Shown here one piece after another: positions 14,639 through 31,672 of a DNA stretch of 64,000 nucleotides. Within the stretch, counting starts at the first letter, position 1. Every line of letters begins with the position of its first letter. Under the pieces are notes generated by a model that saw only the letters and a list, made by a program, of their open reading frames with translations, was not told the DNA's origin and ran no database searches. The translations under genes and the position numbers were made by a program. This stretch comes from a candidate division WOR-1 bacterium RIFOXYB2_FULL_37_13 (GTDB taxonomy: Bacteria > Margulisbacteria > WOR-1 > XYC2-FULL-46-14 > XYC2-FULL-37-10): the NCBI GenBank assembly GCA_001771535.1, contig MEUB01000027.1, positions 20,601-84,600 on the forward strand, in the 5' to 3' direction.

Positions 14639-14640
14639 CG

Positions 14641-15996
14641 TTATGCTAAATAATAATAAACGTTTTTACCTTTTCCATTCCGCATAATAAGACTTTTTTC
14701 TTGTAAAGATACAAGTTCTCTAACGGCAGTATCTTTAGATGTATTTAATAATCCCATACAGGTTCTTCTATTTATCTTTTTGTTTTCTCTTAAATAATCC
14801 ACAATCTTTTTCTGCCTTTCATTTAATTCTTTAAAAGACTCCTCACTAATGCGATATTTTCTAAACGTAACAAGGAAGTCTCCAGAGGTTTCTTCAAAGA
14901 TCGGCTCAGGTAAACCTTCTTTTAAACAAGTTTTAACCATTCTGTTTGTTCCAGTACCCCACTCTTCAATATACTTCATTAAAAAGAAACATTTTCCAAT
15001 CAATGGATTTCTTAAAATAGATTTGTGCTTTTTCTTAAGATCCTCTGGGATAAGAGGATTTGGCAGATGTCCGCAACCCCATATTTCCATTCTATCATCA
15101 AAAACCCTAATTTGTATATTGCTTGCAATGCCATAATCTCTATGGCAAATCGCATTCGTAATTGCTTCTCTTATCGCCTCAATCGGATATTCCCATTTTT
15201 CAATCCTCTCGGTTCCTTTAATTTCAGCATGAAGCTTAATATGCTCCTTTATAAACTCTAAAGCATCATCTCGTTGTTGAAAAAGATTTCCTCCGAAAAC
15301 TTTCATATCAATGAATTCTATTGGACTAATTCCTTTAAACCTTGCGCATTTTAATTTTGCCTGTGAAAAGAATTTTTGAGTATTTTTACCAAATAAAAGC
15401 ATTGCGGCATTTGTTAATTTATTATTTACAATCAAATCTAGCCTCTTTAAAACATCTTTTGCTGATATTTTTAGATCAAGATATAGCCTTCTCTCAAAAA
15501 CTATCTTTTTAAGAAAGTTTTTTACTTGCGCAACATCAACATCCTTTAATGTAGCCCCTTTACAGCTTTGCTTATCAAACTGGAGCTTGTCTTTATGCTT
15601 TTCCAAAATCAAAAATTCATATTCATCCTTGCTCATTTTAAATGAGGATTTTCCGACTCTCTTGTATGGCCGCCCAAAAGCCAGCACACTTTTATCTGGA
15701 GATGGCATTACTTGAATTACAATAATTGTTTTACCATCAATCTTTTTCATCGTTATGCTGGGATAAACTTTAGGATCAGTTTCCTGTTGAATTTTATTAG
15801 CAAGACGCTCAAGAGTCCCTTTGCCAATTGATATCCCAATAATATTGCCAGAATCAGAAACGCCAACTAAAATTTTACCGCCTACCGTATTAGAAAAAGC
15901 TGAAATTGTCTCTATAGCTTCATTATCAAAACTCTTCTTAAATTCAACAAGTTCTGATTCGCCTTTTTTTATCAGTTTTTTAATATCTTTATCCAT
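14641..15996 (-). CDS. AlbA_2 (divergent AAA / Schlafen-like) + HATPase_c_4-like + C-terminal winged-helix protein; putative DNA-binding regulator of unknown mechanism
   Basis: N-terminal ESELVEFKKSF...AFSNTVGGKILVGV, typical of the AlbA_2 domain; central AIREAITNAICHRDY motif; C-terminal helix-turn-helix (HTH)-like region. Paralogue of 30305..31672. Confidence 0.65.
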   Translation of the reverse strand: MDKDIKKLIKKGESELVEFKKSFDNEAIETISAFSNTVGGKILVGVSDSGNIIGISIGKGTLERLANKIQQETDPKVYPSITMKKIDGKTIIVIQVMPSPDKSVLAFGRPYKRVGKSSFKMSKDEYEFLILEKHKDKLQFDKQSCKGATLKDVDVAQVKNFLKKIVFERRLYLDLKISAKDVLKRLDLIVNNKLTNAAMLLFGKNTQKFFSQAKLKCARFKGISPIEFIDMKVFGGNLFQQRDDALEFIKEHIKLHAEIKGTERIEKWEYPIEAIREAITNAICHRDYGIASNIQIRVFDDRMEIWGCGHLPNPLIPEDLKKKHKSILRNPLIGKCFFLMKYIEEWGTGTNRMVKTCLKEGLPEPIFEETSGDFLVTFRKYRISEESFKELNERQKKIVDYLRENKKINRRTCMGLLNTSKDTAVRELVSLQEKSLIMRNGKGKNVYYYLA

Positions 15997-16018
15997 AATA
16001 AATTATTTCCTATCCATC

Positions 16019-16939
16019 TTAGATCCCCAACTTTTTTAATATTTTATTAGATATAGAATCAGAATCTAAACCTATTTTTCTCCTGACAAAATCCTGATCC
16101 CCGACATATTTTACGAAACAATCATTCACTCCAAAACATTTAATTCTAGCCATTATGCTTAATTTTGATAATGCTTCTAAAACAGCGGAACCAAACCCTC
16201 CAACAATTGAATGTTCTTCTATTGTAAAAATACACTTTGTTTTAGAGGCTGCAAAAGATATCGCTTTATAATCTATGGGTTTAACTGATGGCATGCTTAT
16301 TAAGTTAACGCTAATTCCCTTATCTTTTAAAATTTTAGCAGTATCCATTGCTGTTTTAAGCATATTACCGGTAGAAAAAATTGAAATATCATTGCCTTTA
16401 AAAATATGAATCGATTTGCCAAAAGAAAATTTTGGTTTTTTATCATGTAAGCGAGGTTCCCCGCTTTTCCCAATTCTTATGTAAGTGGGCCCTTTTTTCT
16501 TATATGCTTCAACAATACAAATTTCAGCTTCAATAGGATCTGCCGGACAAAAAACCTTCATATTTGGTATCGCCCTCATAATGGCAATATCCTCTACTGA
16601 TTGGTGAGTCGATCCTTCTTTTGCATAAGTAAGCCCTCCTCCTAAACCTATAAGAACAACATCCAGATTCTGATAGCACAAATCTATTCGTATTTGCTCA
16701 AAACATCTCATCGAAACAAATGGGGCAAAGGTATAAAGAAAACATCTTTTGCCCGATAATGCCATGCCGGCTGAAACACCTACCATATTTGCCTCAGAAA
16801 TTCCGACATTCAAAAATTGTTTTGGCAATTCCTTTTCAAAATCTTCGAAAACTGAAAAGCCCATATCAGCAGATAAGAGCATAACATTTTTATCTTTCAG
16901 CGCTATTTTCTTAATTGAAGTTACAACTGAGTTTCTCAC
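16019..16939 (-). CDS. Transketolase, C-terminal (pyrimidine-binding + C-terminal domain) subunit of a split transketolase
   Basis: 306 aa; GISEANMVGVSAGMALSGKR...; pairs with the N-terminal subunit with a 4-bp overlap. Confidence 0.8.
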   Translation of the reverse strand: MRNSVVTSIKKIALKDKNVMLLSADMGFSVFEDFEKELPKQFLNVGISEANMVGVSAGMALSGKRCFLYTFAPFVSMRCFEQIRIDLCYQNLDVVLIGLGGGLTYAKEGSTHQSVEDIAIMRAIPNMKVFCPADPIEAEICIVEAYKKKGPTYIRIGKSGEPRLHDKKPKFSFGKSIHIFKGNDISIFSTGNMLKTAMDTAKILKDKGISVNLISMPSVKPIDYKAISFAASKTKCIFTIEEHSIVGGFGSAVLEALSKLSIMARIKCFGVNDCFVKYVGDQDFVRRKIGLDSDSISNKILKKLGI

Positions 16940-17790
16940 TTAATTTTATCTCCAAAGTTACAAAGAGCTTTTTTGAATTCATCCTCTTTTGGTGATCTGT
17001 AATGCCACATCAATGAATCTTCCATAAAAGGAATACCCTTACAATGCACAGTCTTTGCAATGATCAATAAAGGTTTTTTTGATTTTATATTTGCTAAAGA
17101 ATTATATATTTGCAATATATTATGTCCGTCTATTTCTTTTACATTCCAATTGAATGCTTCCCATTTCCGTCTTAAAGGTTCAAGGCTTAAAACATCACTT
17201 GTCCGTCCATATCCTTGGAAACCATTCTTATCTAAAATAACGGTTAAATTATTCAATTTATGATGTGTTGCAAAAAGCGCTGCCTCCCAAATAGAACCTT
17301 CATCACATTCTCCGTCTCCAATAATCGTGTAAACAGAATATTTTTTATTATCTAATTTTGCGCTCAACGCCATGCCAGCCGCAATAGATAGCCCATGGCC
17401 TAAAGATCCCGTAGATGCCTCAATTCCAGGAACACTCCCAAAAACCGGATGTCCTGCCAGTCTCCCATTATTAGAATAATAAGTATTGAGAATTTTTTTA
17501 TTGAAAAATCCTAATTTAGACAAAATAACATATAGGGCAACACAAGCATGCCCCTTGCTTAAAACAAACCTATCCCTATCAGGAGAAACAGATTTTATCT
17601 TATTAACATTTAAAATCTCATAAAACAAAACAATTAAGATATCAACCAATGAATATGCACAACCAATATGCGAACTTTTAGATTTTGTTATAAGCTCTAA
17701 TATTTTCTTCCTCACTTCCATTGAAGTAAACGTAAGTTTATTGATTTTATTTTTCATATAATTCTTTTTTATTTTTTCTAAACCATTCAA
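16936..17790 (-). CDS. Transketolase, N-terminal TPP-binding subunit
   Basis: GHPVFGSVPGIEASTGSLGHGLSIAAGMA...IIGDGECDEGSIWEA is a TPP-binding signature. Confidence 0.8.
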   Translation of the reverse strand: MNGLEKIKKNYMKNKINKLTFTSMEVRKKILELITKSKSSHIGCAYSLVDILIVLFYEILNVNKIKSVSPDRDRFVLSKGHACVALYVILSKLGFFNKKILNTYYSNNGRLAGHPVFGSVPGIEASTGSLGHGLSIAAGMALSAKLDNKKYSVYTIIGDGECDEGSIWEAALFATHHKLNNLTVILDKNGFQGYGRTSDVLSLEPLRRKWEAFNWNVKEIDGHNILQIYNSLANIKSKKPLLIIAKTVHCKGIPFMEDSLMWHYRSPKEDEFKKALCNFGDKIK

Positions 17791-18730
17791 TATAAAGTTT
17801 TAATCCTTCATTTAAATCTATCGTGGGCTCCCAACCTAAAGTTTTCTTTATTTTATCAATATTAGCCTGCCAAAAAGCAGGTTCGCTTTCTCTTGAAGCT
17901 ACCTTGCCCCACAAACATTCATTGCGTTTCCCCATAATACTGCAAATTACATTTAAAATATATTGAACGGAATACTGCCTCCCACTAGAAATATTAAAAA
18001 TTTCACCATTAAGCTTTTTAGCCCCCAGAGAGTTAATTATCTTTAAATATGCATTAACAATATCATCTATAAAACAAAAATCTCTGACAGAAGATGGGTT
18101 TGCCAAATTTGGAATTTTATCCTCTAATAAAGGTTTAATAATTGAAGGAAAAAGTCTCCCTGGATCCTCAAAGTAACCATAAGCAGAAAACAATCTTATA
18201 GTTATAATATTTCTATCTGTTTTTTTAGCTGTTTTTTGGCAAAATAATGTAGTTGCTGCTTTTGAAAGACCATAATCATTAACAGGTTCTAGATAATCTG
18301 TCTCACGCATAGGCTTATTTTTAATTCCATATTCCGAAGAAGACCCTGTATTTATAAATAGTTTTCCATCTGTTTTCAAAAAAGCTTCTAAAAGATTAAT
18401 TGTGCCAAACAGATTAACTTGAAACATTCGTTGTAAATCTTGTTGATAATGATAGCCTCCATATACAGCAAGATGAATTATTATGTCAGGATTAATATCA
18501 CTTAAAACACTCGAAATTTTTTCTTTATCACTTAAATCAGCTTCATAAAACTTTATTTCATCAAATATTCCCCTCAATCTCCACAAATCAGAATCATTTT
18601 TTTTAATTGCATAAACTTTTGCTCCAAGATTTACCAATACACGAGCAATATTTGCGCCAACAAAGCCAGTCACTCCCGTTATTAATATCTTTTCTTTTCC
18701 AATAAAATTATTTTTTTCTGCCTCTTTCAT
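17747..18730 (-). CDS. NAD-dependent epimerase/dehydratase (extended SDR)
   Basis: ILITGVTGFVGANIARVL Rossmann motif; 327 aa. Confidence 0.8.
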   Translation of the reverse strand: MKEAEKNNFIGKEKILITGVTGFVGANIARVLVNLGAKVYAIKKNDSDLWRLRGIFDEIKFYEADLSDKEKISSVLSDINPDIIIHLAVYGGYHYQQDLQRMFQVNLFGTINLLEAFLKTDGKLFINTGSSSEYGIKNKPMRETDYLEPVNDYGLSKAATTLFCQKTAKKTDRNIITIRLFSAYGYFEDPGRLFPSIIKPLLEDKIPNLANPSSVRDFCFIDDIVNAYLKIINSLGAKKLNGEIFNISSGRQYSVQYILNVICSIMGKRNECLWGKVASRESEPAFWQANIDKIKKTLGWEPTIDLNEGLKLYIEWFRKNKKELYEK

Positions 18731-18748
18731 ATAATAATTATTCGAATA

Positions 18749-20086
18749 TTATTTATTAGCATTAGTTTTCATAAACTCATTTACCATTTTAACAATATAT
18801 TCCAACTTCTCTTTTGTCATCCCCGGATAAACCCCAACCCAAAAAGTATTATTCATAATTAAATCCGTATTTGTAAGTTTACCTACAACCCTATATCCCT
18901 TTTTAACCTTTCTCATTTCATCAAATGCCGGATGGCGAAGCATGTTGCCGGCAAAAAGCATTCGCGTTTGTATTTTACTATCCTCGAGATAATTGACGAT
19001 TTCTTCACGAGAAAATCCTGCATCAGGTTTTACAGTAATTAAAAACCCAAACCAACTGGGGTCTGAATCTTTCAGAGCTTTAGAAAATATAAGTTTATCG
19101 GAATATTTGCTTAATGCATCAAGTAAATATCTGTAATTTTTCTTTCTCGCCTCAATAAAGCCTAGAAGTTTATCTAATTGCGCACAGCCAATCGCAGCCT
19201 GCATATCGGTTACCTTTAAATTGTATCCAAAATGAGAATAGATATATTTATGGTCATAGCCATAAGGCAACTCTCCCAACTGCCATTTAAATCTTTTCTT
19301 GCAAGTATCATCCTTTCCACTCGGACACCAGCAATCACGACCCCAATCTCTAAAAGATTCAATAATACGCTTTAACTGAAGATTATTAGTTAAAAGAGCT
19401 CCGCCCTCTCCCATTGTTATGTGGTGAGGCGGATAAAAGCTGCAAGTGGCAATATCACCAAAAGTTCCCGTATATTTGCCTTTATATGTTGAGCCAAGAG
19501 AATCACAATTGTCTTCAATCAGCCATAAATTATGTTTCTTGCAATAGTTCTTAACTTTATCAATATCAAAAGGATTCCCTAAAGTATGAGCAATCATTAC
19601 AGCTTTTGTTTTTTTAGATAAAGCCTTTTCTAGCTTATCACAATCGATATTATAAGAAGGCAAAGTTACGTCAACAAAGACAGGAATAGCTCCAAATTGG
19701 ATAATAGGAGCAATTGTTGTTGGAAACCCTGCGGCAACTGTTATGACCTCATCTCCTCGCTTAATTTTTTTATTGCCAAGCTTAGGAGATGTTAAGGCCA
19801 TAAAAGCCAGAAGATTAGCAGAAGATCCAGAATTTGTTAAACTGCAATGCTTAACGCCAATGAAATCTGCCAATCTTTTTTCAAATTCCGCGGCATAACG
19901 GCCGGAAGTTAGCCAAAATTCAAGAGAGGAATCAACAAGATTGACAAGCTCTTTTTCATCATAAACGCGCCCGCCATAATTAACACGGGTTTCGCCTGGG
20001 ATAAAATCGGATTTTGATTGTGAAGCTTTATAATAATCTTTAACTTTGTTTAAAATTTCTTGTTTGAGTTTATTTTTTTTGTTCAT
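18749..20086 (-). CDS. ddhC: CDP-6-deoxy-D-xylo-4-hexulose-3-dehydrase (E1; DdhC/RfbH), PMP-dependent, with [2Fe-2S]-binding Cys motif
   Basis: Extensive collinear similarity to RfbH: FWLTSGRYAAEFEKRLADFIGVKHCSLTNSGSSANLLA, GDEVITVAAGFPTT, HNLWLIEDNCDSLGSTY, SFYPPHHITMGEGGA, ESFRDWGRDCWCPSGKDDTCKKRF, GYDHKYIYSHFGYNLKVTDMQAA. Confidence 0.85.
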   Translation of the reverse strand: MNKKNKLKQEILNKVKDYYKASQSKSDFIPGETRVNYGGRVYDEKELVNLVDSSLEFWLTSGRYAAEFEKRLADFIGVKHCSLTNSGSSANLLAFMALTSPKLGNKKIKRGDEVITVAAGFPTTIAPIIQFGAIPVFVDVTLPSYNIDCDKLEKALSKKTKAVMIAHTLGNPFDIDKVKNYCKKHNLWLIEDNCDSLGSTYKGKYTGTFGDIATCSFYPPHHITMGEGGALLTNNLQLKRIIESFRDWGRDCWCPSGKDDTCKKRFKWQLGELPYGYDHKYIYSHFGYNLKVTDMQAAIGCAQLDKLLGFIEARKKNYRYLLDALSKYSDKLIFSKALKDSDPSWFGFLITVKPDAGFSREEIVNYLEDSKIQTRMLFAGNMLRHPAFDEMRKVKKGYRVVGKLTNTDLIMNNTFWVGVYPGMTKEKLEYIVKMVNEFMKTNANK

Positions 20087-20152
20087 AATTATCTCCCAAG
20101 TTGTCCTGATTTACCAGGCTAATATTTTGTTTTTATCCTTTTTCTGAATAAT

Positions 20153-21250
20153 TCAAGGCTTATAAAGTTGCCGTTGATCCGGAGTTATAAAATCTTCTTT
20201 TGTAAATACTTCTGAATATGGCACCGGTATTGGTTTGCCATATATTCTTTTTGCTATATATTTATCAATAAAGTTTCTATCTTCAGCAATCCAACATGTA
20301 TCACAATATTGTCCAAACTGTTTAATATTTAAGCCCCGGTCAATAATATCTTTTAAGGGTTCCTCAAAAAAGTTTCCAAGAGAAGTATGAATGTATGGGC
20401 ATGGCATTACATCTCCGTATTTTGTAATTGAAACCATTCTTTTGACAGCAATACAGCCCAACTCAACACCGTAAGAGGGAGTTAAATGTGTAAACACATT
20501 ATGTTTTTTCTCCAATTCTCTCATGTAATCCATATCCGCTCTATCAACCAGACTGCTAAAATTCCCCTCCCAAGCCCCAACTGGCTTTGCATATGATACA
20601 AAAACCCCAACCCCCTTATCATTAAAAAACTTTAAAAATTCAATAAATTCTTGCGATCTGACTCTCTGCTTTGTAACTACAGTTTGTATAATAATCTTTA
20701 ACCCGGCATTCAAGGCCGCATCAACCGCCCTTAACGCCTTTTCATGAGATTTTGCTTTTCGCCTGAACTGATCATGTTCATCAGCTGAAAGACTGTCAAT
20801 ACTAAGTTGGATTTTATCAACTCCTATACTTTTTAAATGTTCTGCTCTCTTTTCATCTAACAACCAACCATTCGTATCAGAAGTTATGTAAAATTTTTGT
20901 GGATCAATAGCATTCACCAACTCATCAAAATCAGGAAAAACCAAAGGTTCTCCACCTGTAATAACAAGGTGTGCAAGCCCCATTTCATCTGCCTGCCGCG
21001 AAAGCTCCTTAACATCATTAATGGTAAAAACCCTGCCATCTTTTCTACCCTGGAACCTTTTTATGCAACAATGTTCACAGACAAAATTACATGTATAATC
21101 ATACTGAAATTGAATTATTGCGATACTTTCCTTGTTTTTAATTTTCTCATCATATTTCAGGATTTTTTCATACACCTGTGGTTTTTCTTTTTTTAGCAAA
21201 AACCTGCCTGCCTCTTCTTGAGAATTCAATTGCCCTTTTTGATTCGACAT
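20153..21250 (-). CDS. Radical SAM enzyme with C-terminal SPASM/twitch-like Cys-rich domain
   Basis: CNFVCEHC (CxxxCxxC) at about residue 55; C-terminal GCIAVKRMVSITKYGDVMPCPY and CDTC motifs. Confidence 0.75.
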   Translation of the reverse strand: MSNQKGQLNSQEEAGRFLLKKEKPQVYEKILKYDEKIKNKESIAIIQFQYDYTCNFVCEHCCIKRFQGRKDGRVFTINDVKELSRQADEMGLAHLVITGGEPLVFPDFDELVNAIDPQKFYITSDTNGWLLDEKRAEHLKSIGVDKIQLSIDSLSADEHDQFRRKAKSHEKALRAVDAALNAGLKIIIQTVVTKQRVRSQEFIEFLKFFNDKGVGVFVSYAKPVGAWEGNFSSLVDRADMDYMRELEKKHNVFTHLTPSYGVELGCIAVKRMVSITKYGDVMPCPYIHTSLGNFFEEPLKDIIDRGLNIKQFGQYCDTCWIAEDRNFIDKYIAKRIYGKPIPVPYSEVFTKEDFITPDQRQLYKP

Positions 21251-21297
21251 AATATTTTCCTCCTAATAATAATTTTATTTTAATCTATTCTTCAACG

Positions 21298-22437
21298 TTA
21301 AACAATCTCTAACCCAAAATCTCTCAATATAGAAACATTAATATTTTTATCAAATTTCTGCCTTACAATTCTTGCCACCTCATCGGAATAACTAGCTGCC
21401 ATAATAATTATTGCATCAACAGGATCAATATTGAGCATGACAGGAGCAACAATAGGGATATGCGTAGCTGAAGTGTATTTCCCCTGTTTAAATGGGGCAG
21501 AATCAACGACATATCTAATTTTATTTGATAAATCTGCCAAAGAAATAATTGCCAAAGCTTGATGGCTAGCCCCCCAAACAGCCACGCTCTTCTGCTTAAA
21601 TTGGCTGATATATCTGTCCATTTCATCTTTAATTTTAGTTTGATGCTGATAAAAAGAAGAAAGATCCATTCTTCTTCCTTTTTTTACAGTGGCAGAAATA
21701 ATAAAATCATGCCAAATCTCACTGCAATCAATAATGTCAAAACCATTCAAATGCAATGTTGTCGTTAATGTTTTTTTTGTAAAATAAAAAATATGATCAG
21801 GAATAAACTCAGAAAAAAGTTTATTGCGTAAAATCATATCAAAATTAGGCACTTCAACTATTCCAATTGCATTAGGTGCCAAATTATTGTAAATTCCTTT
21901 TAATGCGGAATTTGGATCAGGAAAATGCTCAAAAAAGTTTAAAATAAAAAAAGCAGCAAACGGCGCTTGTTTTAATGTATAAGAACCATTGTCAATATAA
22001 CCCTGTTCTACCTTCAGCCCTTGGTTGATGCATTGCGCTACGGATTCGCTCAAATGTTCCAAACCATAAGCCTCTGCTCCACATTGTTGCATAATAGAAA
22101 GATATTCTCCCTTGCCACACCCAATTTCAATTATTTTTTGACCCTTAAGTGAATATTTTTTAAAAAAATCGCTGAATTGTTTTATTCTGAATTTTTCCAT
22201 GTCTTCAGAAAAAGCAGCAGCACGTATAACATCTTTATAATAAGCAACTGGCTCACTGTTTAGCTGTACTAACCTGCATCCCATGCATTCACAAATTTCC
22301 AAATCAATACCTTTTTCAGAGGAAAGTGCTGCTAAATCCGGTAAAAATTGAGCCGATTTAGGCATATTTTTATAATGCAATATAGGTTCTGCAAAAAAAT
22401 CATTCCCGCAGACTCTACAGCATTTGTTTTTTTTCAT
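21298..22437 (-). CDS. SAM-dependent methyltransferase with N-terminal Zn-ribbon, TylC3-like NDP-hexose C-methyltransferase architecture
   Basis: Probable start MKKNKCCRVCGNDF at 22437 (the ORF-track start at 22533 overlaps the upstream gene); central class I MT fold IIEIGCGKGEYL; roughly 100 aa C-terminal domain. Confidence 0.55.
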   Translation of the reverse strand: MKKNKCCRVCGNDFFAEPILHYKNMPKSAQFLPDLAALSSEKGIDLEICECMGCRLVQLNSEPVAYYKDVIRAAAFSEDMEKFRIKQFSDFFKKYSLKGQKIIEIGCGKGEYLSIMQQCGAEAYGLEHLSESVAQCINQGLKVEQGYIDNGSYTLKQAPFAAFFILNFFEHFPDPNSALKGIYNNLAPNAIGIVEVPNFDMILRNKLFSEFIPDHIFYFTKKTLTTTLHLNGFDIIDCSEIWHDFIISATVKKGRRMDLSSFYQHQTKIKDEMDRYISQFKQKSVAVWGASHQALAIISLADLSNKIRYVVDSAPFKQGKYTSATHIPIVAPVMLNIDPVDAIIIMAASYSDEVARIVRQKFDKNINVSILRDFGLEIV

Positions 22438-22438
22438 A

Positions 22439-23817: not shown

Positions 23818-23838
23818 AATATCATTTCCTTTTGATAT

Positions 23839-24900
23839 TCATCCTTTTAAATATTCACCCGCTAAGTGCATATCACACTCTTTTGTACACTTAATCCCTT
23901 TTGCCAAATCATAGTGATTTTTTCTGAATTCATTATATTTTTCTCCGTTCCAGATATCATATAAACTATTTTCTTTCGCATTGCCTAAAATTATTTCATT
24001 ATTATAATCTTCCATACACATAACAACATCAGCATTGGATTTTATAGTCATTGACATCCATGGGTGCTTGCAAATTTCAGACCAATGGACAGAATTTGTG
24101 CCATGAAAATCCTTTCGATACCATTGTTGATCCTCACTCTTCAAATAAACATAAACATCTAAACCACAAAAAGCATCTTTAAGTTTTTGATATTCTTCTT
24201 TCTGCCAAGAATTATTTAAATCGAGCATTGTAATAATAATAGTTGTTTTATAGCCTTTTTGCTTTTTTATATTAATTAATTGCAAAATTTTATTATAACT
24301 ATCTGTAAAATTTGAGGCTTCACCCCTAATTTCTTTATGCTTTTCATCATCAACACTCTCGATTGAATATTTTATATAACTTAAGCCATTTTCAAACATC
24401 TTAATAGTGTTTTCAATATTGATGTTGGCAGGATTACAACTAAAATAGGAATAAAACCCCTTTTCAGTAAGCAACTTTACATATTCTCCCATATTCTTAT
24501 CTAATAAAGGATCTCCATATCCATGAAGTTGGATAACTTTCGGTATTATGTACAAAAAGAAATTGTTTTCGCTTTGTTCATCTTTCTCGATATTGTAGTT
24601 TTCTTTTACAAATCTCTCCCAATCTGACCATTCTTCTTTGGACCATGGACGCAATTGATTCAATATATTTATAAACACTTCCCTATTGATAGTTTCAATT
24701 TTTCTCGTCATTCTGGTTGTTCGAGGGCACATTTTGCATTTCATATTGCAAGCATTCGTTGTTTCAATGTTATAAACAACAGGATCCTTACTTCGGAATT
24801 GCTCAAATTGATCAATGATGTAATTTTTATCGAATTTTTCCCCATTCAACATTTCCTTGGAAAATTTATAAGCTTTCATAAAAAAATTAATATCAAACAT
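23839..24900 (-). CDS. Radical SAM enzyme (second copy) with C-terminal Cys-rich SPASM-like region
   Basis: CNMKCKMC (CxxxCxxC); C-terminal ICKHPW...VVMCMEDY...KCTKECD. Confidence 0.7.
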   Translation of the reverse strand: MFDINFFMKAYKFSKEMLNGEKFDKNYIIDQFEQFRSKDPVVYNIETTNACNMKCKMCPRTTRMTRKIETINREVFINILNQLRPWSKEEWSDWERFVKENYNIEKDEQSENNFFLYIIPKVIQLHGYGDPLLDKNMGEYVKLLTEKGFYSYFSCNPANINIENTIKMFENGLSYIKYSIESVDDEKHKEIRGEASNFTDSYNKILQLINIKKQKGYKTTIIITMLDLNNSWQKEEYQKLKDAFCGLDVYVYLKSEDQQWYRKDFHGTNSVHWSEICKHPWMSMTIKSNADVVMCMEDYNNEIILGNAKENSLYDIWNGEKYNEFRKNHYDLAKGIKCTKECDMHLAGEYLKG

Positions 24901-24936
24901 TTTTTACCTCCAATAATTTCGATTTATTGTATTTTC

Positions 24937-25914
24937 TTAGCACGATTTGTCTACCTTAAATGAAAGCGTCTGTAATGCAATTTCAAGCGCATTTATCCCA
25001 TCATCAAGCGTACAAATCGGCTCGGTTTCACGGCGAATCACAGATAAGAAATGGCGCATTTCATCAATAAACAATGAATTCCTTTCGAAATATTTTGGCG
25101 CTTCAATAAATTCCCAAGCAGAATGATTCGGTCTATAAATTGATAACTGGCCATCTGCATTATTCCAACGGATTGTGCCATTTGTTCCAATAACTTCCAA
25201 GTGGTGAGTTGTTGGCCTTTGTATATAATCAAGATGCACAGATCCAAATGCTCCATTAGGAAATTTCAAGTATACATCCGCAACATCTTCAACATTGATA
25301 CCTAGATCTCCTACTGTATCTGTATGCGCCCACATGAATTCAGGTTTTCCAAATAACCAGCTTAAATAATCAAATGGATGGCAAAGGGTTAAAACAACTC
25401 CACCGCCCAAGTCTGGACGAGCTGCATAACTGTTCCGAAAATCTTCCCATGGATGCCAGTCAGGCAAATATTCTCCCCAATGAACATTAATAGAAACTAT
25501 TCTACCAATTTCTCCTTGGGAAATCATATTAGAAGCAATCTTAAGTGTAGGATGAAATCGATACTGAAAGCCAACTAAAAATTGTCCTCCACCATGCTTC
25601 AAGGCTGCTTTTAATTTATCTATCCCTGCTAATGAATCAGAAATAGGCTTTTCGATTAAAATATGGCAACCAGCTTCTGCAGCCGGAATTGCAATATCAA
25701 AATGTAATGAAGTCGGATTTGATATTATTACAGCATCTGGTTCATGCTTTAAAGCCGAATAAATATTAGTTTCAATTGGAAATTCTTTGAATTCATCATC
25801 AATTGGAGAGGCAACCTTATTACGGCATAAAACAATATCTTTTTCTCCAAGAGAAATTAAATTCTTCAAATGCCTGCGCCCAATAGATCCAAGCCCAACA
25901 ACAACAAATTTCAT
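24937..25914 (-). CDS. Gfo/Idh/MocA family NAD(P)-dependent oxidoreductase
   Basis: MKFVVVGLGSIGRRHLKNL N-terminal Rossmann motif; EKPIS motif. Confidence 0.8.
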   Translation of the reverse strand: MKFVVVGLGSIGRRHLKNLISLGEKDIVLCRNKVASPIDDEFKEFPIETNIYSALKHEPDAVIISNPTSLHFDIAIPAAEAGCHILIEKPISDSLAGIDKLKAALKHGGGQFLVGFQYRFHPTLKIASNMISQGEIGRIVSINVHWGEYLPDWHPWEDFRNSYAARPDLGGGVVLTLCHPFDYLSWLFGKPEFMWAHTDTVGDLGINVEDVADVYLKFPNGAFGSVHLDYIQRPTTHHLEVIGTNGTIRWNNADGQLSIYRPNHSAWEFIEAPKYFERNSLFIDEMRHFLSVIRRETEPICTLDDGINALEIALQTLSFKVDKSC

Positions 25915-25941
25915 TTTATATTTTTTCCTTATTTAAAAACC

Positions 25942-27747
25942 CTATTCTTCAAGCGGAGGAATAATCATATTTTCAAGAAATTCCTTTCTATCCAAAAAAG
26001 GCCATAAATCTTCTAATGGTTTTGAAACCATTGTTCCATCCTGTTTTTGAATAGTACTCATGCTGGGAGCCCTTGGTTCATCTGGAGGAGTAAGAATTTC
26101 GCAAACTACGGTTCCCGCCATATTCAAAACTTCCCGAAGTTTGTCAGCCAGCTTTTCTTGGCTGGTTATTTTTTTGATTTTAAGTCCATATGCTTGCGCA
26201 ACTTTACAAATATCCGGAAGTTCAAGCCCGCTGGTAGAATCAGCCCCTGTCAACCTATTAAAATATCTCATTTGTGAAGTGCGTATAGATGAATATCCCT
26301 GATTATTTAATACAAATATTTTTATTGGCAAGTTAAGTCTGGCTAAAGTTTCAAACTCTTGAATATTAAATTGAATGCCACCATCACCATCTACACAAAT
26401 AGTCCGTTTTTTATCACTTGCAAGACATCCTCCAATACTGGCCGGTAACCCATTCCCCATCGAACCTAATGCTGTTGTATTCAAAACTCTTTGACCCTTT
26501 TTTGCTTTAAAAGCAAGTAAAAATATCTCAATACCAGCACCAGAACTGCAGGGGATCACAATATCATCGCTATTTAGCTCATCTGAAAGAACCTCAGTAA
26601 AAACATATGTACTGACAAGTTTCTCTTCTCTATATTCTAGCAATACAACCGGATATTTCTTCTTCCATTCTTTACATCTAATAAGCCAATTTGAACGGTT
26701 CTTTGGCAGAATGCTATTTAGCTGTTTTATCATTTCTTGAATAAATATTTTAACATCAGAACAAATTGGAACATCTATTTTAGTCTGCATTTTATTAATT
26801 TCTGCCGGATCTATGTCTATCATGATTTTTTTGGCTGCTCGCGCAAATTTTTCATGGGAATACCCCGTTACAACGGTATCCAACCTGGCGCCAATGCTAA
26901 TTAAACAATCTGAATTTTGAAGGGCGAAGTTTGCGCCGCGTGGAGCTACAGGGCCTGGCCGGCCAACCAATAAATCATATGAATCTGATAAAATATCAAG
27001 GGCAGGCCATGTTAACAATACTGGTATTTTTAATTGCTCAATCAAAAAAAGTGCATCCTTTATTGCCCCTGATAAGCGCGTTCCATTCCCTAACAATAGT
27101 ATAGGCCTTTCAGACTTATTTAATAATTCAATTGTTTTTGAAACTAGATCAGATATATTATTTCCCTGCGATTGGTTGATAATATTTTTTTCATCAAAGC
27201 CTTCTAGTTGATCAATATCAATTATTGAAGCTTGAACATCTAAAGGGATATCAATCCATACAGGCCCTGGCCTGCCTGATTTTGTCAGATAAACCGCTTT
27301 TTCTAAATGAAAGCGGATGCTACTAGGATCCATAATAGTAACAGAATATTTGGTAATAGATTTTACAATCGGAACAATATTAACTTCTTGTACGCCGTTT
27401 TGCCTTACACCCAAATTGCCAATAAGATCAGACCTTTTAACCTGTCCTGAAATAAACATACACGGGGTAGAATCCAACCATGCCCCTGCTACTCCGGTAA
27501 TAGCATTGGTTCCCCCAGGACCAGTTGTTACTAATGCTACGCCCATGTTATTTTTTGCAATTCTTGCATAAGTTTCTGCTGCCATTGCGCTAGCCTGTTC
27601 ATGTTGATTGCAAACAAATTCAATATTTTTATTGTGGCCAATAGAATCATTCAAGTGCATAGCACCCCCACCCGGAACCATAAACACATGCTTAACTCCC
27701 TGGTCAACTAAAAATTTAACAACATAATCAGATAATTTGATTTTCAT
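25942..27747 (-). CDS. TPP-dependent enzyme of the acetolactate-synthase large-subunit family (YerE-like branched-sugar C-C ligase candidate)
   Basis: 601 aa; N-terminal pyrimidine-binding domain with VFMVPGGGAMHLND; C-terminal TPP-binding GSMGNGLPASIGG...DGDGGIQFNIQE. Confidence 0.8.
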   Translation of the reverse strand: MKIKLSDYVVKFLVDQGVKHVFMVPGGGAMHLNDSIGHNKNIEFVCNQHEQASAMAAETYARIAKNNMGVALVTTGPGGTNAITGVAGAWLDSTPCMFISGQVKRSDLIGNLGVRQNGVQEVNIVPIVKSITKYSVTIMDPSSIRFHLEKAVYLTKSGRPGPVWIDIPLDVQASIIDIDQLEGFDEKNIINQSQGNNISDLVSKTIELLNKSERPILLLGNGTRLSGAIKDALFLIEQLKIPVLLTWPALDILSDSYDLLVGRPGPVAPRGANFALQNSDCLISIGARLDTVVTGYSHEKFARAAKKIMIDIDPAEINKMQTKIDVPICSDVKIFIQEMIKQLNSILPKNRSNWLIRCKEWKKKYPVVLLEYREEKLVSTYVFTEVLSDELNSDDIVIPCSSGAGIEIFLLAFKAKKGQRVLNTTALGSMGNGLPASIGGCLASDKKRTICVDGDGGIQFNIQEFETLARLNLPIKIFVLNNQGYSSIRTSQMRYFNRLTGADSTSGLELPDICKVAQAYGLKIKKITSQEKLADKLREVLNMAGTVVCEILTPPDEPRAPSMSTIQKQDGTMVSKPLEDLWPFLDRKEFLENMIIPPLEE

Positions 27748-28304
27748 TAAACACCTATAGTTATAGTTTCTTTTGCTTTCATTTTTTGTTCCAATAGCAT
27801 ATCTAAGAATTCACGAACAGCCCCATCTCCACCCCTATGTCGAGTTATAAAGTCAACACTTTTTAAAACTGAGGGATGCGCATTAGGAGGGGCAACTGAC
27901 AAGCCAACAATTTTCATTGCAGGCAAATCATTGACGTCATCACCAATAAAGCATATTTCCGATAAATCAAAGTTATTCCTTTTGGCAAATTCAATAATCG
28001 ATTTTGCCTTATCTTTACAGCCTTTATATATTTCTTCAATCTTAAGTTTTTGTGCATATCTCTCCACAATTGCCATGCCTGAGACACTGCTTTCACCCGA
28101 CATTAGAGCAATTTTTATGCCTGCTTTTTGGGCAAAAGGAATCCCTGTTATATCTGCAAAACAAAAACGTTTTAGTTCAACATTATTTGAGTCCCACCAA
28201 AATGTTCCATCTGTCAAAACACCATCAACATCCATAACAACCGCTTTTATTTGATCAATTTTTATATTTTCAAGCATTTTATATCCCCCAAAGCTATCAG
28301 ACAT
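27747..28304 (-). CDS. HAD-IIIA phosphatase, KdsC family (3-deoxy-ulosonate-phosphate phosphatase-like)
   Basis: VVMDVDGVLTDG (HAD motif I) and FIGDDVNDLPAM (motif IV); 185 aa. Confidence 0.75.
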   Translation of the reverse strand: MSDSFGGYKMLENIKIDQIKAVVMDVDGVLTDGTFWWDSNNVELKRFCFADITGIPFAQKAGIKIALMSGESSVSGMAIVERYAQKLKIEEIYKGCKDKAKSIIEFAKRNNFDLSEICFIGDDVNDLPAMKIVGLSVAPPNAHPSVLKSVDFITRHRGGDGAVREFLDMLLEQKMKAKETITIGV

Positions 28305-29166
28305 TTCTAAGTCTTTTTATAATGGCTTCTTCCTTTGGTACAATCCTTTTTATGCCATCTCCCATAGACTTTTCAACCAATCGAATATCTCTCATTAAAC
28401 GATTTAATCCGTTTGGTTCCAAAGATGCCGCATGGTCAGATCCCCACATGGCTCTATCAAGAGTAATATGGCGCTCTATAACACAAGCTCCCATAACAGA
28501 AGCCGCCACAGATGTAGCCAGCCCTGTTTCATGCCCTGAATACCCAACAGGAACTTGATATCTATCTTTTAAAAAAGGTATTACCCTAAGATTCAAGTCT
28601 TCATAGCTTGCAGGATAAGCACTGCAACAATGGAGCAAGATTAAATCATTCTTCTGCAATATATCGACAGCATGATCAAGTTGTTCTAATGAAGACATGC
28701 CAGTTGATAGGATTATAGATCTTCCTTGTTTTCTTACATGTTTCAACAAAGCATCATCGGTTAATTTGGCAGCAGGAATTTTGTAACATGGGATATTGTA
28801 TTTCTCAAGAAAATCAACTGAATCCATATCCCAGGCAGATGCAAACCATGTTATCCCTATCTCTTTGCAAAATCTCTCAATTTCATCATATTCATTCTTT
28901 TCAAATTCAACCCTTTTGCGATATTCAAAATATGTCATATTGCCCCATGGGGTTTCACGAACAATATCTCGCTGACTAACTGGAACACATAATTCTGGAT
29001 TGCGTTTCTGGAATTTTACAGCATTACATCCTGATGCAGCCGCAACAGTGATTAATTTTTTTGCAATATTCACATCCCCGTTATGATTTATGCCAATTTC
29101 TGAAATAAAATAAGCAGGCTGTCCATCTCCAACTTTTGTATTTCTAATATTTACCGTATTATCCAT
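28297..29166 (-). CDS. NeuB-family PEP-dependent sugar synthase (N-acetylneuraminate / ulosonic acid synthase-like), TIM-barrel only; no SAF/antifreeze C-terminal domain
   Basis: YFISEIGINHNGDVNIAKKLITVAAASGCNAVKFQKR matches the NeuB N-terminal signature; 289 aa versus about 340 aa for canonical NeuB/PseI. Confidence 0.7.
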   Translation of the reverse strand: MDNTVNIRNTKVGDGQPAYFISEIGINHNGDVNIAKKLITVAAASGCNAVKFQKRNPELCVPVSQRDIVRETPWGNMTYFEYRKRVEFEKNEYDEIERFCKEIGITWFASAWDMDSVDFLEKYNIPCYKIPAAKLTDDALLKHVRKQGRSIILSTGMSSLEQLDHAVDILQKNDLILLHCCSAYPASYEDLNLRVIPFLKDRYQVPVGYSGHETGLATSVAASVMGACVIERHITLDRAMWGSDHAASLEPNGLNRLMRDIRLVEKSMGDGIKRIVPKEEAIIKRLRNV

Positions 29167-29219
29167 TTTTTTCTCCTTTTAAATTTTTACTGATGATTTG
29201 GTAAAATAATTTATTGTTT

Positions 29220-30308
29220 TCATGTTTTATTTACCTTTATGCCTTTAGAATATAATTCTATTTGATTATAACAAACTCTCCTCAGGTCTTTTCTTTCTTT
29301 ATAAGCTCTAGTCCACTCAACAATCTTATCAAGTGCTTTTTCCAAATCCCATTTAGGATTCCAATCTAATCTTTTTTTAACCTTAGTACAATCTAATTTT
29401 AAATAATGCGCCTCATGAGGATGCATCCCTTTATCAATTTCATAAGAAGCAGCTTCTCCCCATTTAAAGCATAATTTCTTAACAATCCATAAAACGGATC
29501 TTGAATCTTTCTCATCAGAACCAAAGTTCCAAGCTTGTGAATATTTAGCTCCATTTTCATATAATTTTTCAGCCAAAAGAAGATATCCGAAAAGTGGTTC
29601 CAAAACATGTTGCCATGGTCGTATTGCTTTTGGGTTTCTAATTGTAATTTTTTTATTGCTTAAAATTGCTCTCACAAAATCAGGGATTAGACGATCTTGC
29701 GCCCAATCCCCACCACCGACAACATTCCCCGCCCTAGCAGTCGCAATTCCAACTCCATGAGCAGAATATTCTTTTGGGTTAAAAAATGAATTTCTATAAG
29801 CGGCTGTTACAATTTCAGAGCATGCTTTGCTGCTGGAATAAGGATCATATCCCCCTAAAGGTTCGTCTTCGCAATAGCCTGCAGCTCTTTCTTTGTTTTC
29901 ATAACATTTATCTGTAGTTACATTTATAAAAGCTCGAACAGTTTTACAGATTCTTACGGCTTCCAATAAATTTACTGTTCCCATTACATTTGTAGAATAA
30001 GTATCTACTGGATTTTTATAAGAATCACGAACCAAAGGTTGCGCCGCCATATGAATCACAATATCAGGTTTTGCCTTAAACAAAGCTTTTTGAAGATTTT
30101 CTAAATCCCTTATATCTCCGATAACAGAAGTTACAAGTTCTTCTATCTTGCATAATTTAAATAAACTGGGATTTGTAGGTGGATTTAATGCATAACCTGT
30201 AACTTTTGCTCCAAGCAAGTTAAGCCATAAAGAAAGCCATGCGCCTTTAAAGCCTGTATGGCCCGTTAAGAAGACTCTTTTATCTTTCCAGAAATTTTTA
30301 TTAATCAT
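29220..30308 (-). CDS. ddhB: CDP-glucose 4,6-dehydratase
   Basis: NFWKDKRVFLTGHTGFKGAWLSLWL is the RfbG/DdhB signature; probable start at the internal Met (30308), overlapping the upstream gene by 4 bp. Confidence 0.85.
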   Translation of the reverse strand: MINKNFWKDKRVFLTGHTGFKGAWLSLWLNLLGAKVTGYALNPPTNPSLFKLCKIEELVTSVIGDIRDLENLQKALFKAKPDIVIHMAAQPLVRDSYKNPVDTYSTNVMGTVNLLEAVRICKTVRAFINVTTDKCYENKERAAGYCEDEPLGGYDPYSSSKACSEIVTAAYRNSFFNPKEYSAHGVGIATARAGNVVGGGDWAQDRLIPDFVRAILSNKKITIRNPKAIRPWQHVLEPLFGYLLLAEKLYENGAKYSQAWNFGSDEKDSRSVLWIVKKLCFKWGEAASYEIDKGMHPHEAHYLKLDCTKVKKRLDWNPKWDLEKALDKIVEWTRAYKERKDLRRVCYNQIELYSKGIKVNKT

Positions 30309-31672
30309 TTTTTTTCTTGCTTGCTCGTTATTAATATCTTCCAAAATCCACCTTTATCAGGACCAATTCTCTTAATAATCCCCTTACTCTTGAGCTTCAT
30401 TAAATTCTCCTCGGTTTTACGCAAAGAAATCCCAATGGCATTTGCAATTTTTACGGCAGAAATATTGGACTCTTTATAAATCAGATTGACTATTTTTTTC
30501 TGATTTGGTGTTAATCTTTCACCGACCTTTTCACCGACCTTTTCACCGACCTTTTCACCGACCTTTTCACCGACCTTACTAAAAAATGTTACAGAAAAGA
30601 TTCCCGATTCTTCAAGAAACTCGGGTTCCGGTAGTCCCTGTTTCTTACAACCAGCAATTATCTTAAGCGTTCCGCTCCCCCAACTTTCAATAAAACCAGC
30701 TTTATAAAATATGTCAGCCAACAGTACATTTCTTGGCTTCGATATGTGTTTTTGCTTCAATTTGATGATTGGAAGCTCTTTTGGCATTTTGCCTTCATTC
30801 ATAATAATAAGCTTTTCATCATATATTCTTATTTGCACCGCGGAAGTTCCGGTATAATCCCTATGAACAAGAGAATTTAAGACCGCTTCTCTAAGCGCAT
30901 TATATGGATATTCAAGCTTTTCTCTTCGATGGATGCCTTCATAGGAAATTCGACTTACCAAATACTTTGTCTTTAACATATTCATAACAACTTCAACTTG
31001 ATTAAATAGGTTTCCTTCAACAACATCGCTGGTTAATATTTCGCTATCAGACTTGAATTTCCCTATTTTTACATGGGCTTGCGGATAAAAGGCCTGAACT
31101 TGCCTGCCAAATAAGAGAAGAGCAGCTCTTTTGAAACGTTTATTTTTCAATAAGTTTAATTTATTAAGTATATCTACAGGAGCCTTTTCGTTTTCAATAT
31201 ATGGAAGCCTATCTAATGATAATTTTTTAAAATCTTTAATTGTTTTATCGTCTATATCAGTCATCTTTGCGCCTTCTTCAATAACTTCGTCCCATGTTTG
31301 ACCTGATTTTTTCAAAAGAAAATTTGCTAATTCATTTCCGGAAAGCTCTAGAACAACGCTTCCGCTCCTAATGTAATATTTGCCTTCATAAGAGATAGGA
31401 ACGGACACAGGTTTTATCTTTAATACAATATAATATTTTTTTGATTTTTGTCTAATTAAAATATCAGGTATTATCCCCAATTTATTATTTACTTTATTAG
31501 GAACAATTTCCAATATTTTTTTTGGATCAGGAACTCCAACAATAACACCCTTGTCATCTATTCCAATAAATACCTCTCCTCCATTAGTATTAGCAAAAGC
31601 ACATACTACTCTCAAGATCGAATCATTCCATTCTCTTTTAAATTCTATATTTTGTTTTTCAATGTTTTTCAT
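30305..31672 (-). CDS. AlbA_2 (Schlafen-like) + HATPase_c_4-like + winged-helix protein, paralogue of 14641..15996; contains a (GEKV)5 tandem peptide repeat linker
   Basis: IEFKREWNDSILRVVCAFANTNGGEVFIGI; LREAVLNSLVHRDY; C-terminal wHTH; repeat KVGEKVGEKVGEKVGEKVGER. Confidence 0.65.
   Translation of the reverse strand: MKNIEKQNIEFKREWNDSILRVVCAFANTNGGEVFIGIDDKGVIVGVPDPKKILEIVPNKVNNKLGIIPDILIRQKSKKYYIVLKIKPVSVPISYEGKYYIRSGSVVLELSGNELANFLLKKSGQTWDEVIEEGAKMTDIDDKTIKDFKKLSLDRLPYIENEKAPVDILNKLNLLKNKRFKRAALLLFGRQVQAFYPQAHVKIGKFKSDSEILTSDVVEGNLFNQVEVVMNMLKTKYLVSRISYEGIHRREKLEYPYNALREAVLNSLVHRDYTGTSAVQIRIYDEKLIIMNEGKMPKELPIIKLKQKHISKPRNVLLADIFYKAGFIESWGSGTLKIIAGCKKQGLPEPEFLEESGIFSVTFFSKVGEKVGEKVGEKVGEKVGERLTPNQKKIVNLIYKESNISAVKIANAIGISLRKTEENLMKLKSKGIIKRIGPDKGGFWKILITSKQEKK
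30515..30578. repeat. 12-bp tandem repeat x5 (ttttcaccgacc) inside CDS 30305..31672, encoding a (GEKV)n linker
   Basis: Read directly: tttcaccgaccttttcaccgaccttttcaccgaccttttcaccgaccttttcaccgacctt. Confidence 0.9.

Follow-up and report, generated by a model that had tools for sequence, protein, structure and literature searches.

Two Schlafen-ATPase-winged-helix genes within a glycan operon of a WOR-1 bacterium and the DNA repeats that accompany them

Fusions of a Schlafen (SLFN) domain to a GHKL-type ATPase domain and a helix-turn-helix (HTH) are among the commonest prokaryotic Schlafen forms and account for tens of thousands of proteins. Here, we report on two such genes, designated A and B, which reside in a glycan operon within a stretch of 64,000 nucleotides (hereafter the window) from candidate division WOR-1 bacterium RIFOXYB2_FULL_37_13 (GenBank assembly GCA_001771535.1, contig MEUB01000027.1, positions 20,601 to 84,600 of the forward strand). 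The SLFN + GHKL supradomain has been named Schlatpase, and over 90% of the 60,692 prokaryotic proteins that contain it possess a C-terminal HTH; in RzAgo, the SLFN-pAgo protein of Runella zeae, ATP-driven tetramerisation switches on tRNA cleavage and defence, and a nucleic-acid-bound filament represents the inactive state (bioRxiv 10.64898/2026.05.29.728809). According to a second study, HisKinase-HTH is the second commonest architecture of pSlfn proteins (19.2%), 69.6% of pSlfn genes are located within 10 kb of defence genes, and the fused domains are predicted to be sensors for the SLFN domain as effector; protection of E. coli and tRNA cleavage were shown for no fusions other than the Ig-like and DUF262 ones (Nat Microbiol 2026, PMC13056530). 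Finally, in at least 1017 taxa, loci of BREX and related systems contain Schlafen-minimal-HK-wHTH proteins, described as "backup suicidal effectors" (NAR 2026, PMC12839542).

A and B belong to the known Schlatpase-HTH family, which is the same as the HisKinase-HTH class of pSlfn proteins, and are new members of a known, partly characterised kind. With about even confidence we regard them as independently acquired units of Schlatpase and winged HTH (wHTH), each carrying its own cis DNA element, and as latent RNases, not glycan regulators. A preliminary description of the window, which took the family to have no characterised role, was right in its observations and is outdated in its interpretation, given the papers of 2025-2026.

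Two Schlatpase-HTH genes and the array behind gene A

Open reading frame (ORF) calls, translation and Pfam searches delineate gene A (14641-15996, minus strand, 451 amino acids (aa)), a class-I Schlatpase-wHTH gene, and gene B (30305-31672, minus strand, 455 aa), a class-II gene whose HTH ends in ...GGFW. In A, the SLFN_AlbA_2 domain comprises aa 13-121 (nucleotides (nt) 15634-15960), the GHKL/HATPase_c_4 domain about aa 265-378 (nt 14863-15204) and the wHTH aa 392-451 (nt 14644-14823); the corresponding parts of B are aa 5-105 (nt 31358-31660), aa 278-363 (nt 30584-30841) and aa 388-447 (nt 30332-30511), all encoded on the minus strand. The Pfam scores of both proteins exceed the cutoffs for SLFN_AlbA_2 (PF04326; A 82.1 bits, B 63.5 bits, gathering cutoff 25.3) and HATPase_c_4 (PF13749; 78.9 and 75.9 bits, cutoff 26), and the C-termini match HTH_DeoR in A (22.2 bits, cutoff 21) and HTH_24 in B (30.1 bits, cutoff 21.9). 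BLASTP aligned the two proteins over their full length (448 aa) with 32% identity (E 2e-69), and both contain an HRDY motif (CHRDYG in A, VHRDYT in B). In PADLOC, A and B align with the N-terminal ~400 residues of the SLFN-pAgo model, that is its Schlatpase part, and an NCBIfam search of both returned no family name and weak HTH matches alone. A hypothetical protein from candidate division WOR-1 bacterium RIFOXYC2_FULL_37_10 matches A with 100% identity. A protein database search with B did not return the exact protein (best match 65% identity), probably reflecting a database gap; the B gene is called in every assembly of its population, where the precomputed Pfam field is empty.

The catalytic motifs of nuclease and ATPase are intact in both proteins. 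The Ex4ExK nuclease motif reads E13-x4-E18-F-K20 in A, together with a SAFSN box, and E5-x4-E10-F-K12 in B, together with a CAFAN box. When A and B were aligned with 30 homologues, E13, E18, K20 and N36 (A numbering) were retained in 32/32 sequences and the SAF(S/A)N box was conserved; likewise, the N-box residues E277/N281 and the glycine lid G347xG349 of the GHKL domain were invariant in all 32. An AF2 model of A (pLDDT 87.1) displays three modules, the last of which is a winged helix (aa 393-450) composed of three helices and a beta-hairpin. In Foldseek searches the model retrieved DIP2311 (3LMM) as best match (E 3e-25), also the sole match in a sequence search of the PDB (E 1.7e-8), as well as the nuclease domains of human SLFN14/11/12/13/5 and the SAMD9 tRNase (E 6e-5 to 2e-3). 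Its C-terminus retrieved the small winged-helix DNA binders AspA, PagR and MecI.

Beginning 3 nt past the stop codon of A, three tandem 11-bp direct repeats (array A, 14604-14638, minus strand; AAATGCGACGC x3 at 14605-14637) constitute the predicted site of the wHTH and end about 40 nt before the start of wzt, the next gene. Tandem Repeats Finder (TRF) reports positions 14604-14641 with a period of 11 and 3.5 copies, and the observed number of repeat matches was reached in 0/100 shuffles. The copy number is three in 9/9 assemblies of the population. There is no second array of this unit in the window; its one other match, an inverted copy with 1 mismatch at 14000-14010, is within chance expectation. 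A role of array A at the RNA level found no support (fold z = -0.75, no Rfam match in the window).

Comparison across the family revealed that such arrays are a recurrent property of these genes. A tandem repeat within 90 nt downstream was present for 57/143 near-full-length genes, with a period of 11 in 54 of the 57, as compared to 0/143 upstream. In a non-redundant set, 55/129 genes carried a downstream 3 x 11-bp array with at most 4 mismatches, and upstream controls gave 0/122 even when up to 6 mismatches were allowed. Exactly three copies were found in 50/55 arrays, and in 33/55 the array starts with the first base after the stop codon. The array accompanies the SLFN gene whatever follows, be it a methylase, a Fic, a toxin-antitoxin or a sugar gene. 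Copies of the array units elsewhere in their own loci amount to 27 as compared to about 9 naively expected, in AT-rich DNA and at inconsistent positions.

Some class-I loci depart from the rule of three copies of 11 bp: L128, L129 and L130 carry 7 copies, L068 carries 6.6, and L058 has a 12-bp period; in the sister loci L124 and L126, the same unit is present in three copies. At L184, on the Rhodothermus marinus plasmid pRMAR01 (NC_013502.1, 81156-82492), the homologue is broken by stops and its 3' part alone is annotated; two 11-bp repeats (TTGGGCAAGAA and TTGGGCAAAAC) follow the stop codon, and a transposase gene adjoins.

To relate the arrays to the proteins, similarity of the repeat units was compared with the identity of the HTH (last 62 residues) and of the N-terminus (first 370 residues) in 1431 gene pairs. 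Unit similarity follows wHTH identity (Spearman 0.53, OLS coefficient 0.91) and hardly N-terminal identity (Spearman 0.16, OLS coefficient -0.12). Indeed, in 110 pairs with more than 60% identity in the N-terminus but less than 35% in the HTH, unit similarity was 0.49, which equals background, whereas 61 pairs alike in both parts reached 0.94. At 55-70% HTH identity the units were still 0.91 similar, as compared to 0.49 for third codon positions of the HTH; the 40 nt beyond the array gave 0.58 against a background of 0.56 and are thus saturated. Moreover, the residues with which the predicted recognition helix begins (aa 420-423 in A) change together with the central triplet of the repeat. Residues SKDT, present in A and four others, go along with the core TGCGACG, SK(S/N)T with TGGGACG, SRAT with TGAGACG, SP(T/A)T with TGAAACG and SERT with TGGCACG. 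Furthermore, ISDRTALNDL is paired with the unit TTTCGGATAAA, VSRITATRDL with TGATGCAAAAA and ISNETAR.DL with TATCCCA(A/G)ATT. As 11 bp correspond to about one helical turn, the three sites would lie on one face of the DNA.

From these comparisons we conclude that the array appears to be under selection as part of the gene unit, and it most probably represents the cognate site of the wHTH. That the wHTH binds its own array in cis is fairly probable. Taken together, what the preliminary description had observed is confirmed: both ORFs exist on the minus strand with the proposed domain architecture, as seen with Pfam, the paralogy at about 30% identity and the shared HRDY motif reappear in the alignment, B separates ddhA and ddhB and A immediately precedes wzt (TIGR02623, TIGR02622 and a Wzt-type ABC ATPase), and the 11-bp direct repeats are real. 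Its idea that the wHTH might act on these repeats gains strong comparative support from the presence of the array throughout the family and its covariation with the HTH.

A single-gene mobile unit and the in-frame array of gene B

Gene and array move together. A-like loci with unrelated flanks share 80-94% nucleotide identity, and this identity is limited to the ORF and its margins, running from about 13-14 nt before the ATG to about 60-70 nt past the stop codon. Thus, the unit is a mobile one-gene unit with a private array. Some A-like pairs are alike over the first ~1.1 kb and not over the HTH-coding end, which indicates that the C-terminal module is exchanged between genes. The closest relatives share at most 67% identity with A and at most 65% with B and are distributed over very mixed bacterial and archaeal phyla; homologues were also found on plasmids (178 records) and on phages or satellites (45 records). 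Such a distribution points to horizontal movement of the gene, and since A and B fall into different subclasses, they represent independent acquisitions. A small MarR/HTH_24-like gene (206 aa), which shares 70-84% nucleotide identity across three loci (L008 2087-2707, L108 1539-2083, L158 145-744), follows the SLFN gene in one of them and precedes it in the other two, as if travelling with the unit.

Gene B has no intergenic space past its stop codon. It belongs to a subclass in which the HTH ends in ...GG(Y/F/H)W and which lacks a 3' array even where there is room for one, e.g. in Emticicia (L187). Instead, the HTH-coding part of these genes is directly preceded by a 12-bp tandem array in frame. 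In B, TRF detects AAGGTCGGTGAA x5.1 at 30517-30577 (minus strand; array B), which lies between the GHKL- and wHTH-coding parts and encodes (KVGE)5. Equivalent in-frame arrays were detected in L005, L085, L133, L185, L186 and L187. The repeats are A(A/G)GGTCGGT(G/A)AA x4.9 in L005, AAGTTGGGTGAA in L133 and in an Arcobacter plasmid gene upstream of hsdR, ACCGATAAGGTC x4.6 in Tannerella forsythia and AATGAGCGGGTA x4.5 in Parabacteroides distasonis. Period-4 peptide repeats occur in ten of B's matches, eight of which end in GG[YFH]W and two of which are closely related; the peptides themselves differ (VGEK, TDQK, SSEK, VVDK, PENV and others). B-class genes with similar recognition helices share array units. 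Among assemblies of the population array B has 3, 4 or 5 copies, and three contigs break within it.

Since a period of 11 is incompatible with the reading frame, a DNA element forced into it would be expected to show a period of 12. We conjecture, with lower confidence than for array A, that array B may be the intragenic equivalent of the class-I array.

Neighbourhoods, glycan loci and alternative explanations

The window consists of one long run of minus-strand genes, with a GC content of about 0.26-0.39 in 1-kb windows. B is inserted between ddhA (glucose-1-phosphate cytidylyltransferase, 31698-32483, minus strand; TIGR02623, 336 bits, cutoff 300), which lies 25 nt upstream, and ddhB (CDP-glucose 4,6-dehydratase, 29220-30308, minus strand; TIGR02622, 504 bits, cutoff 278), whose ATG at 30308 overlaps the TGA stop codon of B (ATGA). 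An alternative start of ddhB at TTG 30344 was rejected in favour of this ATG. A starts 22 nt past a transketolase gene and ends 75 nt before wzt, which encodes an O-antigen/teichoic-type ABC exporter ATPase (13255-14565, minus strand); the exporter permease gene wzm is found at 32506-33339 (minus strand). In the order of transcription, B is preceded by wzx, glycosyltransferase, wza-like, wzz, excisionase-family HTH, gmd, fcl-like, wzm and ddhA genes. From B to A follow ddhB, NeuB-like, HAD, acetolactate-synthase-like ThDP enzyme and GFO genes, two radical-SAM genes, C-methyltransferase, RfbH, epimerases and a split transketolase, and after A come wzt and then glycosyltransferases. In 16 contigs, taken from independent assemblies of this population, the surroundings of A and of B look the same, and an assembly artefact is thereby excluded. 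Consensus scans of the window listed no promoter or terminator of their own next to A or B; promoter-like sites (87 vs 82.8 +/- 8.9) and terminator-like sites (15 vs 10.3 +/- 3.0) occur at chance level.

Several further features of the locus were recorded. The block 16019-30308, with ddhA, ddhB and RfbH (ddhC), combines a ThDP enzyme (25942-27747), the split transketolase (16019-17790), two radical-SAM enzymes, a C-methyltransferase and a short NeuB-like protein without SAF domain. Judged by family names, its enzymes would seem to lead to a branched-chain, C-methylated 3,6-dideoxyhexose (yersiniose-like). An AAA_14-family ATPase gene (1280-2701), which is not a sugar gene, is placed between glycosyltransferase and epimerase genes, and a homologue (31% identity) is located near a SLFN gene in the ANME-2 locus L018. 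Another non-sugar gene, a 73-aa excisionase-family HTH_17 ORF (35349-35570), lies between wzz and gmd. Heptanucleotide tracts (GACATTC x3.9, TGTTCTG x3.9 and ACATTCG x4.7, at 41625-41686 and 42501-42533) sit inside a 734-aa ADH/GFO fusion ORF (40637-42841); as 7-bp repeats in a coding region shift the frame upon slippage, they may represent a phase-variation tract.

Across the family, restriction-modification (R-M) and BREX-type genes dominate the immediate neighbourhood. Among 146 immediate neighbours, taken from 80 GTDB species-representative loci and the first six context loci, the Pfam counts were ResIII 11, Helicase_C 11, SNF2 6, N6_Mtase 5, Methylase_S 4, Fic 4 and PLDc_2 4. The SLFN gene is wedged in operons of the types PLD-SNF2 helicase/SLFN/Eco57I-MmeI methylase and type III Mod/SLFN/Res. 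One locus has GmrSD, DUF1016 and Fic as neighbours and another an integrase, and tandem SLFN paralogues are common, with up to four in L080. A Fic-family gene adjoins the SLFN gene or is at most 2 ORFs away in at least 10 loci (L003, L012, L017, L021, L085, L087, L136, L141, L145, L148), and a DUF1016/YhcG nuclease gene is nearby in L003, L067, L134, L136 and L162; both may represent recurring two-gene partnerships.

Residence in glycan loci recurs as well. The best homologue of B (P0121, 65% identity) is found inside a sugar locus between pglD and neuB, and close homologues of A lie beside a pse/neu-type cluster, among DegT/epimerase and toxin-antitoxin genes and within an lpxI-lpxB-msbA cluster. 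Parabacteroides distasonis (NZ_OY725760.1) harbours two paralogues among glycosyltransferase genes, at 64274-65605 and 61112-62926; one of the two shares 47% identity with B (E 1e-153), and the other is a more distant Schlatpase. In Tannerella forsythia ATCC 43037 (NZ_JUET01000030.1), a B-type gene is located close to neuB/neuC, within about 43.2-44.5 kb of the record. For counting, crude ORF calls were searched by phmmer with the sugar proteins of the window, and a locus of 8 kb or more was scored as a glycan locus if it had at least 3 sugar-like flanking genes. Loci were de-duplicated by flank similarity; a first de-duplication by whole-locus similarity had merged unrelated loci whose SLFN genes are 80-94% identical, and was redone with the SLFN gene masked. 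Glycan loci amounted to 6/55 in the GTDB set (4.9% of flank ORFs) and to 12/22 in a set of metagenome loci for which A-specific peptides had served as queries (18% of flank ORFs; Fisher p = 1.3e-4), and to 17/69 for all A-like loci pooled. A special tie of the closest relatives of A to sugar genes found no support (7/22 at 480 bits or more vs 10/47 below, p = 0.38). Glycan-locus residence is thus a real but unquantified tendency. Inherited synteny was discarded: in L002, L005 and L008 the SLFN proteins are 61-66% identical to A or B, the flanking sugar genes share 25-37% with those of the window, and gene order differs, which speaks for repeated independent residences. Genes of the 23S_rRNA_IVP family (four-helix-bundle), PIN/ParE toxin and SSB genes are interspersed in the SLFN-bearing sugar loci L002, L005, L047, L062 and L108; in these uncultured organisms, selfish or defence-type genes apparently accumulate in glycan loci.

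How may these features fit together? We propose that each unit is a compact, horizontally mobile single gene that brings its own cis element beside the wHTH-coding end, which for A would be the three 11-bp direct repeats past the stop codon and for B probably the 12-bp array that precedes the wHTH-coding part in frame. The wHTH would bind the array, thereby holding or assembling the protein in cis at its own gene, and the SLFN domains, once brought together, would form an active tRNA-cleaving nuclease. The units would then be latent toxic RNases, acting as "backup" defence or as selfish modules, that ride in a co-directional glycan operon and are expressed by read-through. By analogy with the described relatives, we give a little less than an even chance to the functional part of this proposal, namely that an ATP-switched SLFN RNase may serve as latent defence, backup or selfish effector through read-through from the host operon.

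A number of points weigh against this reading. HisKinase-type pSlfn fusions conferred no defence in E. coli against the phage panel used (PMC13056530), and the activity of stand-alone Schlatpase-HTH proteins is something we infer. No recognised defence gene is located near A or B, whose neighbours are sugar-nucleotide, glycosyltransferase and export genes, and a pure defence model leaves the recurrent residence in glycan loci unexplained. About half of the genes have no clean 3 x 11-bp array by the criteria used, some show two-copy or degenerate arrays, and genes in R-M operons with overlapping ORFs show none. The covariation is confounded, as the HTH-coding segment adjoins the array and both could be swapped together; in addition, the gene pairs behind it share phylogeny and are not independent. 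For array B, a slippage-prone flexible linker with polymorphic copy number is an equally simple explanation.

A first alternative is a cis-DNA addiction module or locus guard, in which the protein is inactive only while tethered to the three-site array; loss of the locus would free a stable RNase that kills or arrests the cell, and a host operon, i.e. an often-exchanged R-M or glycan locus, would be stabilised in this way. The strict linkage of gene and array, with exactly three copies starting at the stop codon, the nature of the unit as a single mobile gene, its residence in frequently replaced loci and the nucleic-acid-bound filament as inactive state of RzAgo would all fit. However, the argument is purely inferential, and genes without a detectable array require another explanation; we consider it unlikely. 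The same doubtful standing is assigned to a generalisation, according to which every Schlatpase-wHTH gene would be a pair of protein and DNA, with tethering to the private array keeping the RNase latent. If so, loss of the locus or displacement upon infection would free the protein for ATP-driven assembly and tRNA cleavage. Such a one-gene system, with a DNA element as antidote or sensor, would explain persistence in often-exchanged R-M and surface-glycan loci.

A second alternative, raised by the preliminary description, is that A and B are dedicated regulators of the glycan block. The wHTH would bind the array before wzt, and maybe other sites, and the SLFN/GHKL part would sense a ligand or ATP to tune expression. 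In favour, array A is placed between the stop codon of A and the ribosome-binding site of wzt, and glycan loci recur around A-like genes (12/22 metagenome, 6/55 GTDB, 17/69 pooled), around the best homologue of B and in P. distasonis and T. forsythia. These two facts, the position of array A and the glycan-locus tendency, leave the idea some probability. However, the array stays with the SLFN gene regardless of the downstream gene; the 64-kb window contains one extra near-match of the unit, and its sole array is at the gene's own 3' end. Furthermore, the position of the gene in sugar loci varies each time, with unrelated flanks, and closer similarity to A does not bring a higher share of sugar loci. 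The catalytic residues of nuclease and ATPase are invariant, the dominant context of the family is R-M/BREX-like, and the genes are internal, co-directional and translationally coupled, not at the start of an operon. Regulators of this kind are therefore quite unlikely, and the annotation of the window should probably not present A and B as sugar-pathway regulators.

The preliminary description had also offered that the two genes might be remnants of a mobile element, which would have delivered the ~18-kb block of CDP-sugar genes between wzm and wzt. The homologues of wzm and wzt are adjacent in the Bdellovibrionales locus L059 and are split here by the block, A being at one end of it and B near the opposite one; the excisionase-family ORF and the ready horizontal transfer of the family, on plasmids, phages and satellites, would suit such an origin, too. 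Against it, both ORFs are intact and neither has lost a catalytic residue, A and B differ in subclass and share 32% identity, B is enclosed by ddhA and ddhB instead of marking an edge of the block, and at other loci the gene travels alone, without cargo. Moreover, no integrase, transposase or other recombinase was seen among the ORFs Pfam-scanned between 311 and 46729, and no block-end or terminal repeats in the TRF output, making this origin very unlikely. Finally, that the arrays are non-functional slippage products hitch-hiking with the 3' end of the gene, for which their position next to the HTH-coding end, where linkage alone could give co-swapping, and the variable copy number of array B could be quoted, is highly improbable in view of the period of 11 in 54/57 and three copies in 50/55 arrays, upstream controls of 0 of 122-143, conservation of the unit where synonymous sites and adjacent non-coding DNA are saturated, and three copies of array A in 9/9 assemblies.

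Comparison with known systems

Irrespective of which function prevails, a gene-private array that co-varies with the recognition helix offers a concrete candidate ligand and a ready-made data set on protein-DNA recognition. The array thereby provides a handle on the question whether these proteins are defence effectors, addiction modules or operon modulators. Surface-glycan loci encode phage receptors and are hot spots of exchange, and a link between receptor variation and an embedded nuclease is open to experiment, the more so as cultivable Parabacteroides and Tannerella carry examples. Literature searches for a repeat array or a glycan link of the family returned nothing, and we could not find a description of a 3 x 11-bp array specific to each HTH variant in the papers searched.

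By sequence and by fold, DIP2311 of Corynebacterium diphtheriae (3LMM, a structural-genomics entry) is the sole solved full-length relative, although it is longer (583 aa) and shares 17-20% identity. As to the repeats, cooperative binders of direct repeats include ParR, which binds parC of plasmid R1 (11-bp iterons), the centromere binder AspA of pNOB8 and the cis-acting RepA of R1. Like these, array A consists of short direct repeats about one helical turn apart, beside the gene of the presumed binder, and in Foldseek the wHTH of A resembles winged helices of the AspA, PagR and MecI type. In contrast, array A has just three repeats directly after the stop codon, its predicted binder is fused to a nuclease and an ATPase, and there is no context of partition or replication. 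As to the proposed activity, PrrC and RloC are anticodon nucleases encoded in type I R-M loci, i.e. latent, ATPase-coupled tRNases that are thought to fire when the host system is compromised. The SLFN contexts Mod/SLFN/Res and helicase/SLFN/MTase fit this scheme, whereas PrrC and RloC have an unrelated fold (an ABC-type ATPase and another nuclease) and are not known to have a wHTH or a cis DNA array.

The backup effectors of BREX loci (PMC12839542) belong to the same protein family as A and B. The order PLD/HKD-SNF2 helicase/SLFN/methylase is also seen in L001, L006 and L088 and, with a different gene order, in L080; L037 and L038 show the helicase/SLFN portion only. The window differs from these loci, as it has no nearby BREX or R-M gene and the hosts of A and B are glycan-biosynthesis operons. 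Similarly, pSlfn HisKinase-HTH proteins are identical to A and B in architecture, but A and B are among the ~30% of pSlfn genes that are not next to known defence genes (PMC13056530). The preliminary description had named a confident assignment of both proteins to a characterised, unrelated function as an outcome that would refute it; this applies only in part, as relatives with other sensor domains are shown tRNases in phage defence, but the HisKinase-type fusions examined in E. coli had no phenotype.

With RzAgo and the Schlatpases in general, A and B have in common the same two N-terminal domains, the Ex4(D/E)xK and SAFAN motifs and the catalytic Glu/Asn of the GHKL domain. They differ in that their sensor is a wHTH of ~60 aa, as compared to an Argonaute core with RNA guide in RzAgo, and in that they are stand-alone proteins of about 450 aa. 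Neither bioRxiv 10.64898/2026.05.29.728809 nor PMC13056530 mentions repeats or operators, and the cis repeat array is without counterpart in the RzAgo work. Thus, our analysis adds two elements to the picture of this family, an HTH-variant-specific 3 x 11-bp array and the recurrent embedding of nuclease genes in surface-glycan operons.

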